A program made the translations under genes and the position numbers. A stretch of DNA of 64,000 bases from a virus (lineage: Duplodnaviria > Heunggongvirae > Uroviricota > Caudoviricetes), in the IMG/VR virus record IMGVR_UViG_3300032007_000002. One strand, given 5' to 3'. Below are positions 20,817 through 21,883 of this stretch, one piece after another (the first letter of the stretch is position 1; the number at the start of each line of letters is the position of its first letter). The notes beneath the pieces were generated by a model. The model made no database searches. It saw nothing but the letters and a program-made list of their open reading frames with translations, and was not told the DNA's origin.

Positions 20817-20828
20817 TTTGCTATATTT
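20817..20828 (+). promoter_or_regulatory. Early promoter motif driving the ncRNA cluster
   Basis: Exact copy, followed by non-coding structured sequence. Confidence 0.75.
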
Positions 20829-20833
20829 CATTA

Positions 20834-21179
20834 CGGAGAGGTCCGAGAGACCTCTTGAAGATTGAAAGACGCGGCATGGATTACTTTGCGGTTACGTAAA
20901 AACCGCACGTTCCCGGTAACGTTATCCGGGCAACAAGATATTCGGGGCGGTGGGTGCCGGCTACCTAGCCGGAGGGCTACCGTCCTACCTCTTGTGGATG
21001 GCACTGTCCATCCAAAAAGACCTTCCTGTCGGAGTAACTCGTGGGCGGAGCCGGCTTACTCGCGGCGAAACCTAAACGAGGCAGGGGGCCTTTTTGGGCG
21101 GACAGCCCATGAATTTGACGACTTCGGGGTATGCGGGAAGTTCCCGCAAGTGCTGCCCCGCTGTCGGACGTGTTTGTAT
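20834..21179 (+). ncRNA. Unassigned large structured RNA (ncRNA-1, ~345 nt)
   Basis: No credible ORF; at least six hand-identified helices, including a 15/16 bp stem 21004-21019/21090-21105. Confidence 0.65.
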
Positions 21180-21251
21180 TGCCCGTTAGCCAAGTGGTAA
21201 GGCAGAGGATTCTGAATCCTCCATTCGGTGGTTCGAAGCCATCACGGGCAA
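21180..21251 (+). tRNA. tRNA-Gln(CTG)
   Basis: TGCCCGT/ACGGGCA, GAGGA-TTCTGAA-TCCTC, TTCGAAG loop; no encoded CCA. Confidence 0.93.
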
Positions 21252-21264
21252 CTACAATAATCTT

Positions 21265-21628
21265 GGGGATGCTTTGGTTTCGACTGGGTATCAAGTTACC
21301 AAGACCTCACCCGCAGTTGGTCTATGGCTGCGTCACAAATGGACCGAAAACACAAATGCCAACAACAGTGCATTCGCCTATCGCGCTGCCGCCTAATCAG
21401 TAGCGGCGTGATTGCCCGGAACAAGCGGAAGGAATAAATTCCGGGACCAAGTGCATATCTTCCAGATTTAGCCGTGAGTTACTGGTCGTAGATCGGCTAT
21501 CTTATACTGGACCAGGACCCCTCTCGGGTAGATCCCCTTGTGGCTTAGGTAGAGCCCTAATAGATTGATGGTGATACGGTTGACGCGATGAGGTATTTAG
21601 GACAGGGGTTCGAACCCCCTCATCTCCA
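21265..21628 (+). ncRNA. ssrA: tmRNA
   Basis: GGGGATG/CATCTCC-A acceptor with G3.U, TTCGAC 5' motif, GGAC-AGGGG-TTCGAAC-CCCCT T arm, tag ORF ANNSAFAYRAAA* at 21358-21396. Confidence 0.93.
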
Positions 21629-21641
21629 CGAATTTTCGTCC

Positions 21642-21883
21642 TGCTGTCGGTAGGACCGCCCTCCAGCACGGGGTAGATGTGGGTGACCGGCTCCGGGTGG
21701 AGCGGCATGCCACTAAGGCAGCGGACACCGTCTTTCCATGCCGCGTCTGTAAAACTGCGGTGCCTCACCCGGCGGAGCGACAAGCGTGTCGCAGAACCCG
21801 GATGGCTAAGCGGTGGCAACGGTTGGTAAAAAGTGGTCGCATGAACATGCCCTTTAGATCGTGGGCGAGAACCGCCGATAGTA
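21642..21883 (+). ncRNA. Unassigned structured RNA (ncRNA-2, ~240 nt)
   Basis: Ends pair as a long interrupted rod (21642-21651/21874-21883, 21657-21661/21863-21867, 21683-21688/21835-21840) capped by a multibranch domain. Confidence 0.6.

Follow-up and report, generated by a model that had tools for sequence, protein, structure and literature searches.

Genes and RNA features of the locus

The locus described here lies within a 64,000-nucleotide stretch of DNA (hereafter called the window) from IMG/VR virus record IMGVR_UViG_3300032007_000002, a member of the Caudoviricetes. Downstream of genes for thymidylate synthase, DHFR and an amidase/endolysin (which ends at 20780), a promoter is followed by an untranslated leader (nc1), tRNA-Gln, tmRNA and further non-coding sequence, the first part of which is a folded core (nc2 core; Table 1). 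This order had been proposed in a sequence-only reading of the same DNA and was borne out by ARAGORN, Rfam and a consensus scan; the spacers, which that reading had put at about 0-13 nt, are 0 nt (nc1 to tRNA), 12 nt (tRNA to tmRNA) and 6 nt (tmRNA to core). While tmRNAs are common in huge phages, we know of no studies on the expression and maturation of phage tmRNAs. Comparative sequence analysis identifies at this locus two conserved, covarying RNA modules which belong to no known family and which hold fixed positions beside the phage tmRNA.

Table 1. Features of the RNA unit and the adjoining insertion (window coordinates)
Feature	Position	Strand	Remarks
Promoter	20799-20827	+	-35 GTGACA, 17-nt spacer, extended -10 TGCTATATT
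nc1 leader	20833-21179	+	347 nt, structured; ends at tRNA-Gln first base
nc1 conserved 5' domain	20835-20930	+	~95 nt, three hairpins (P1, P2, P3)
P1 hairpin	20835-20856	+	Loop CGAGA; starts 1-2 nt past the inferred start
GAAGAUUGA segment	20857-20865	+	Directly 3' of P1
P2 hairpin	20888-20906	+	
P3 hairpin	20912-20930	+	Loop UAACGUUAU
tRNA-Gln(CUG)	21180-21252	+	ARAGORN; Rfam RF00005, 59.7 bits; no encoded CCA
tmRNA	21265-21629/21631	+	ARAGORN; Rfam RF00023, 88.6 bits
nc2 core	21638-21726	+	Closed multi-helix domain, ~90 nt
Lineage-specific spacer	21727-21825	+	Resumes at 23280-23359 beyond the insertion, up to ATG 23360
IS200/IS605-family tnpB element	21826-23279	+	1454 bp; outside the RNA unit

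The promoter is sigma-70-like (GTGACA-17-TATATT with TG, a 10/12 match in the consensus scan) and its position predicts a transcription start at about 20833-20835. In the relatives described below TTGAC-N17-TGCTAYATT precedes every homologous leader, the extended -10 being conserved. The score of the tRNA, whose CUG anticodon was assigned by ARAGORN, compares with a cut-off of 29 bits for RF00005, and that of the tmRNA with a gathering cut-off of 47 bits for RF00023, the full model (1-374) being covered. ARAGORN gives the tag peptide as ANNSAFAYRAAA, followed by a stop; of the CCA of the tmRNA the first C alone is encoded.

The chance ORFs in the gap between the promoter and tnpB yielded no Pfam match and are disrupted by 1-nt indels in comparison with a 97%-identical relative, which agrees with the earlier statement that no credible protein gene is present. 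A scan of the stretch for terminator-like sites found none outside the tmRNA and none that closes the unit, and in the IS-free state transcription probably continues into the next protein gene (ATG 23360). Because of this, the description of the locus as an RNA-only operon may be too strong. The next gene (23360-23911, 183 aa) belongs to no Pfam or PHROG family. The one at 23993-25156 specifies an RlaP-family nucleotidyltransferase; the nearby tRNA and tmRNA are both without an encoded CCA.

Related phages and distribution

Relatives were gathered by means of the tmRNA 3' end and the motif just after it, resulting in 4 IMG/VR contigs and 15 metagenome loci (L numbers below). All of these are rumen-type, with contigs of up to 473 kb. 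Since CheckV rates the records of 170-220 kb as 45-59% complete, they derive from very large phages. The tmRNA of most relatives lies within arrays of up to 35 tRNAs; where relatives have 24-35 tRNAs at this locus, the window genome has one. L043 is laid out like the window, with an amidase gene, leader, tRNA-Gln, tmRNA and the same next gene. A search of four partial relatives for SmpB found none.

In the sequences searched, both modules are present once per locus, beside tmRNA only and in this phage clade only. A blastn comparison of 20781-21975 with the GenBank phages of INPHARED gave no match, the tmRNA included; the core pattern had 0 matches in 185,579 species genomes, and a looser version returned the same three contigs from IMG/VR and nothing new. 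At the corresponding place the RNA block is missing from L002-L029, the relatives anchored on the amidase gene. The promoter-plus-leader pattern gave 31 matches in the genomes and 5 new loci in IMG/VR, all of which were judged to be chance, none possessing the P1 loop, and a pattern for the leader P2 gave one chance match in IMG/VR (L091).

The nc1 leader

The leader of the window (350 nt) folds far better than its shuffles (z -4.26, 0/100). A common head of nc1 is seen in four diverged rumen phage lineages: the window, L001 and L053 with L043; L046 and L052; L050; and L031, L037, L044 and L048. What these share is limited to the promoter-proximal ~95 nt. The order across the lineages is promoter, P1 (loop CGNGA) and GAAGAUUGA(C/A)A, and the first three lineages also possess P2 and P3, the latter with the loop ACGWUA. 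Pairing in P1 is retained at 7-8 of 8 positions in 10 sequences from the four lineages despite their differing stems; when the strands were swapped between lineages as a control, an average of 4.45 pairs resulted. Similarly, P3 retains 5-6 of 5-6 pairs with four unrelated stem sequences. The G-U pairs in the stems place the RNA on the + strand. No complement of GAAGAUUGA was found elsewhere in the loci.

Past 20930 the sequence and the length of nc1 differ by lineage, the leaders ranging from 347 to 594 nt. The whole leader is 97% identical in L001 and L053 and approximately 70% identical in L043, which also contains an insertion of about 300 nt. Each leader runs up to a tRNA for Gln, Glu or Pro, ending at its first base, and has U at -1, the base preferred by RNase P. 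In all four lineages promoter and leader head units which start with tRNA-Gln, tRNA-Glu or tRNA-Pro and lead to tmRNA. A variable body, with the promoter-proximal ~95 nt alone shared, is what would be expected of a leader and not of a conserved free RNA.

The sequence-only reading had described two large RNAs, the conservation and covariation of which could be sought in relatives. Both properties were found, for the sub-domains 20835-20930 and 21638-21726; the adjective "large" has to be given up, the conserved units being only ~95 nt and ~90 nt in length.

The core downstream of the tmRNA

On the 3' side of the tmRNA only the first ~100 nt are shared between relatives. Single-sequence folds and RNAalifold agree that the core forms a closed multi-helix domain, and 21634-21727 folds better than its shuffles (z -2.73). 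Pairing in the closing stem (GUCC/GGAC plus CUGYC/GGCAG; in the window CUGUC/GGCAG) is complete (100%) and includes two double changes (CCACC/GGUGG in L037) along with several wobbles, a result matched by 4 of 500 shuffles. The core also has a near-invariant stretch of approximately 30 nt (GGUAGGACCGCCCUYCAGCACGGGGUAGA) and a long, variable hairpin with the loop YGRGYG, the shape of which is kept with five different stem sequences; the closing stem's 3' strand is preceded by a conserved GAA. The alignment consists of 14 distinct sequences from few lineages, in which helices A and B show no variation. Helix A (GUCCU/AGGAC) is a local alternative to the long closing stem and may represent a competing fold.

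A profile search (nhmmer) gave one match per locus (E 1e-20 to 1e-26), and the core was found in every pattern-bearing contig that reaches far enough, always 3' of the tmRNA; no second copy exists elsewhere in the window. In sequence conservation the core is roughly on a par with the tmRNA. Between distant lineages the core is 73-77% identical, compared with 79-80% for the tmRNA, and between the window and L043 the values are 96.5% for the core, 79.7% for the tmRNA and 66% for the neighbouring gene.

In many relatives a closed hairpin domain of ~105-111 nt is inserted exactly between tmRNA and core (L031, 1864-1963; also L040, L042, L045, L048, L051 and L054), and it comes in two unrelated sequence versions. 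A contig from RNA run X17, near-identical to the window, carries 109 extra letters at 21629/21633. Since a domain of ~110 nt intervenes in many relatives, the core does not need direct contact with the tmRNA 3' end.

From the core up to the next tRNA relatives contain 0.7-1.9 kb of conserved, ORF-poor sequence (L031, 2060-2922; L048, 2116-2912; L037, 3560-4885; L050, 4005-5830). These stretches are 63-98% identical between relatives and have no Rfam match; that of L048 folds with a z of -2.15 (20 shuffles). ORFs of ~100 aa found in them were judged by eye to be spurious, with translations rich in Arg, Pro and Gly. This post-core sequence may constitute a large structured RNA, and its conservation and paucity of ORFs raise the possibility that the core is the first domain of a larger RNA which was lost in the lineage of the window.

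The trailer and the tnpB insertion

Comparison with relatives identifies 21826-23279 as a recent transposon insertion. L001 (an IMG/VR record of 172 kb) is 94-95% identical to the window on both sides and lacks this segment; the empty site is also present in L053 (L001 and L053 are the 97%-identical relatives), and contigs from three RNA runs join 21825 directly to 23280/23282. The element carries tnpB only (21976-23265, 429 aa). Its product contains Pfam domains PF01385 (OrfB_IS605) and PF07282 (Cas12f1-like TNB) and matches a PHROG transposase (2e-47), and these domains together with the precise empty site in relatives identify an IS200/IS605-family tnpB element. The G+C content is lower across the element, and its ends are alike, both carrying CATGCCCTTTAG(A/G)TCGTGGG. 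Insertion took place after ...ACGGTTG and before ACGGGCG, and the tnpB stop codon precedes the right end by 14 nt. L037 contains a 77% relative of the element (6043-7392), ~2.6 kb past the tmRNA.

In its native form the trailer consists of 21632-21825 plus 23280-23359, up to ATG 23360. The second non-coding RNA of the sequence-only reading had been extended to 21883. Since the element is missing in relatives, 21826-21883 represents 58 nt of the transposon left end, and 21630-21885 as a whole folds no better than its shuffles (z -0.34). Of that RNA the folded and conserved 21638-21726 survives, and the remainder is the transposon end together with ~100 nt of lineage-specific spacer. The latter is missing in L043, in which the next gene starts ~20 nt past the core, and other relatives show no similarity to it; the whole IS-free trailer (L001 equivalent) folds like its shuffles (z 0.09). 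The corrected boundaries keep the phage RNA apart from the transposon end, so that no chimera need be studied.

Contigs from RNA runs

The RNA data are assembled contigs of six metatranscriptome runs from four studies. Run X20 contains an identical contig covering 21281-21666, while a contig of depth 65 in run X19 links the tmRNA to a variant core and continues for 208 nt. The flanking genes are at a depth of 0-7 in these two runs; in X15 and X17 they are covered at the same depth as the RNA stretch, which makes these two runs uninformative. The X19 and X20 contigs give a weak hint that tmRNA and core are jointly present above background. Neither of these runs has a contig over nc1 (depth 0-0.4), which in assembled contigs is not evidence of absence. 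In X19 the summed contig depth reaches 8941 in the bin 21576-21759, against ~100 over the tmRNA, which is probably due to short T-arm unitigs from other organisms.

Comparison with known RNA families and systems

Non-tRNA members of phage tRNA transcription units are known from T4, the tRNA cluster of which encodes the stable "species 1 and 2" RNAs that are freed by the tRNA-processing enzymes. The present locus resembles this arrangement in having structured non-tRNA RNAs within such a unit; it differs in that the unit also holds a tmRNA and in the strict placement of its modules, one being promoter-proximal and the other tmRNA-distal. A literature search on the neighbours of phage tmRNAs and on the T4 stable RNAs returned nothing usable. 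In rrn operons (boxB-boxA-boxC) and in phage HK022 (put RNA) the leaders of untranslated operons keep RNA polymerase elongating. As in these, promoter-proximal hairpins and short conserved single strands head a long, untranslated, structured unit in nc1; no boxA or put consensus was recognized, and the analogy is a functional one drawn from position alone. Punctuation by tRNAs, proposed for this locus by the sequence-only reading, is familiar from mitochondrial transcripts and from the MALAT1 mascRNA, where tRNA-shaped cleavage marks release neighbouring RNAs. Those cases are eukaryotic, whereas here the tRNA-shaped members are themselves likely to be the main products.

The nearest published folded RNAs beside phage tRNAs are the theta ribozymes (PMC10879173) and GOLLD and ROOL (PMC5737381). 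Theta ribozymes are minimal HDV-like ribozymes which adjoin tRNAs of gut phages and have been proposed to shape the tRNA 3' end (PMC10879173). The core is similar in being a small folded RNA directly 3' of a phage tRNA-type gene without an encoded CCA, but its covarying helices do not follow the nested double-pseudoknot order (P1, P2, P3, P1', P4, P2'). GOLLD and ROOL are large RNAs found near tRNAs and in prophages, possibly co-transcribed with the tRNAs, ROOL having been discovered in cow rumen data (PMC5737381). In common with the present unit they are structured phage RNAs of unexplained role that adjoin tRNAs; the conserved modules described here are ~90-95 nt rather than 580-800 nt in length and match no covariance model.

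With Rfam 15 (E<=10) nothing believable beyond the tRNA and tmRNA was detected on either strand of 20600-22100; neither flank, both of which the sequence-only reading had left unassigned, matches a family, and the tRNA model reveals no pseudo-tRNA remnants there. GOLLD, ROOL, RNase P, HDV-like and other ribozyme families gave no Rfam match in the window, L031, L048 or L052 (E<=1 to 10). Several resemblances were considered and rejected. A possible RNase P RNA (CAGAACCCGG...GGCUAAG in the trailer and GGGUGAAAG in L031) had no model match, and the CAGAACC...GGCUAAG motif is restricted to the lineage of the window and L031, and so is not conserved. Matches to the permuted tmRNA model RF04321 (30.5 and 21.3 bits in the window, 33.7 bits in L048) lie below the cut-off of 47 and all depend on the T-arm of the genuine tmRNA, and an ARAGORN "tmRNA*" in L038 and L052 was taken as spurious. 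A loose descriptor for an HDV-like fold matched 21 times in 20830-21830 against 0-57 times in 20 shuffles, which is background, and no candidate start was located within 10 nt of the end of the tRNA (21252) or of the tmRNA (21631).

Possible roles of the two modules

We read the unit as a stable-RNA operon of a rumen giant phage, with the tRNA and tmRNA as its likely products. The extended -10 promoter would drive a single untranslated transcript comprising nc1, tRNA-Gln, tmRNA, core and spacer. Cutting at the 5' end by RNase P and processing at the 3' end are the established maturation pathway of both tRNA and tmRNA. Here the host RNase P would generate the 5' end of tRNA-Gln and that of the tmRNA, both RNAs would be finished by 3' trimming and addition of CCA, and leader and trailer would be released by these same activities as by-products.

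The reading which we favour, with a probability of roughly 0.45, is that both modules are elements bound to the operon which assist in cis in producing and maturing the tRNA and tmRNA, and that RNase P and 3' processing release them as by-products. The three-hairpin domain could protect the 5' end of the transcript or keep the polymerase going through a long, untranslated, folded unit. The core stands where the next tRNA of an array would be, and could define or shield the 3' flank of the tmRNA. It is because of the fixed place of the modules and the free variation of the rest of nc1 that we prefer roles in cis to free-standing RNAs. What speaks against this preference is the near-invariance of some 30 nt in the core, which exceeds the need of a passive spacer and would suit a free RNA with a catalytic, ligand-binding or protein-binding site. 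The domain separating tmRNA and core in many relatives, the conserved ORF-poor sequence past the core, and the base of 14 sequences from few lineages for its covariation also weigh against it. On account of this near-invariant junction a catalytic or binding function of the core is kept in consideration.

Less probable, but still a serious contender, is that the core and the leader (or the 5' domain of the latter) act in trans as stable RNAs, cut out by tRNA-type processing like those of the T4 tRNA cluster. Both modules are structured, conserved and covarying; the junction and loop sequence of the core is near-invariant over 30 nt, and the core is closed by a stem of its own. The spacers of 0-12 nt are like those of tRNA arrays, the depth-65 contig of X19 holds the core together with the tmRNA, and GOLLD and ROOL provide a reported example of RNAs near tRNAs and in prophages that are possibly co-transcribed (PMC5737381). 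Against this, the greater part of nc1 differs from lineage to lineage, and both modules are fixed in position within the operon, neither having been found alone.

A bolder reading, to which we attach somewhat less weight again, is that the core is a new class of functional RNA dedicated to tmRNA, either a 3'-end element that processes itself or guides RNase P, or a site for a ligand or protein, and that the 5' domain is a new leader which keeps polymerase on kilobases of untranslated RNA. The core would then perhaps be the first domain of an ornate RNA of ~1-2 kb in sister phages.

It seems unlikely that a tRNA-like or degenerate-tRNA domain makes up the core, as a cleavage signal for RNase P or RNase Z that leaves a trailer of ~6 nt on the tmRNA. 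Its four-helix fold (closing stem, 3-bp mini-hairpin, 5-bp stem with a 7-nt loop, and long arm) invites the comparison, as does its position 6 nt past the tmRNA, a distance typical of tRNA arrays in relatives. However, the core has no match to the tRNA model at E<=10 and ARAGORN is silent, the mini-hairpin never varies and is in competition with a second invariant pairing, there is neither a CCA nor a conserved discriminator beyond the closing stem, and in many relatives the 110-nt domain separates the core from the tmRNA. Still less credit can be given to the flanks being non-functional spacer or the decayed remnants of a tRNA array. The body of nc1 and the distal trailer do vary freely, and the locus holds 24-35 tRNAs in relatives and one in the window genome; yet P1-P3 and the core show compensatory changes and conservation equal to that of the tmRNA, there is no pseudo-tRNA signal, and for 20835-20930 and 21638-21726 the idea is largely refuted. 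Hardly tenable is a single large ornate RNA from 20816 to ~23345 with tRNA-Gln and tmRNA nested inside, for although GOLLD-type RNAs can adjoin tRNAs, the interval 21826-23279 is occupied by a recent transposon, L043 lacks the distal trailer, this trailer folds like its shuffles, the nc1 body and trailer are not conserved together, and no conserved leader-trailer pairing was found.

The modules of 95 nt and 90 nt are small and well-bounded targets for work on processing, self-cleavage or antitermination. The sister phages hold far more unassigned structured RNA around their tmRNA, and provide a lead to possible large RNAs of the GOLLD/ROOL kind in rumen phages.

Other features of the related loci

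Between tRNA-Pro and tmRNA one lineage possesses a conserved non-coding spacer of 181-486 nt (L031, 1184-1500, with counterparts in L044, L048, L051, L054 and L037), compared with 12 nt between tRNA and tmRNA in the window. The tRNA-Gln of L043 is only 64% identical to that of the window, as against 96.5% for the core. In contigs from runs X15 and X17, otherwise near-identical to the window, a diverged stretch takes the place of the 83 nt which include tRNA-Gln (21175-21259), with no change in length. Genes of endonuclease type also interrupt the RNA unit: L043 has an HNH endonuclease-type gene (265 aa; HNH-like motif recognized by eye) between tRNA-Gln and tmRNA, and L044 encodes, between tRNA-Pro and tmRNA, a protein of 269 aa with a C-terminus which by eye is Vsr/DUF559-like.
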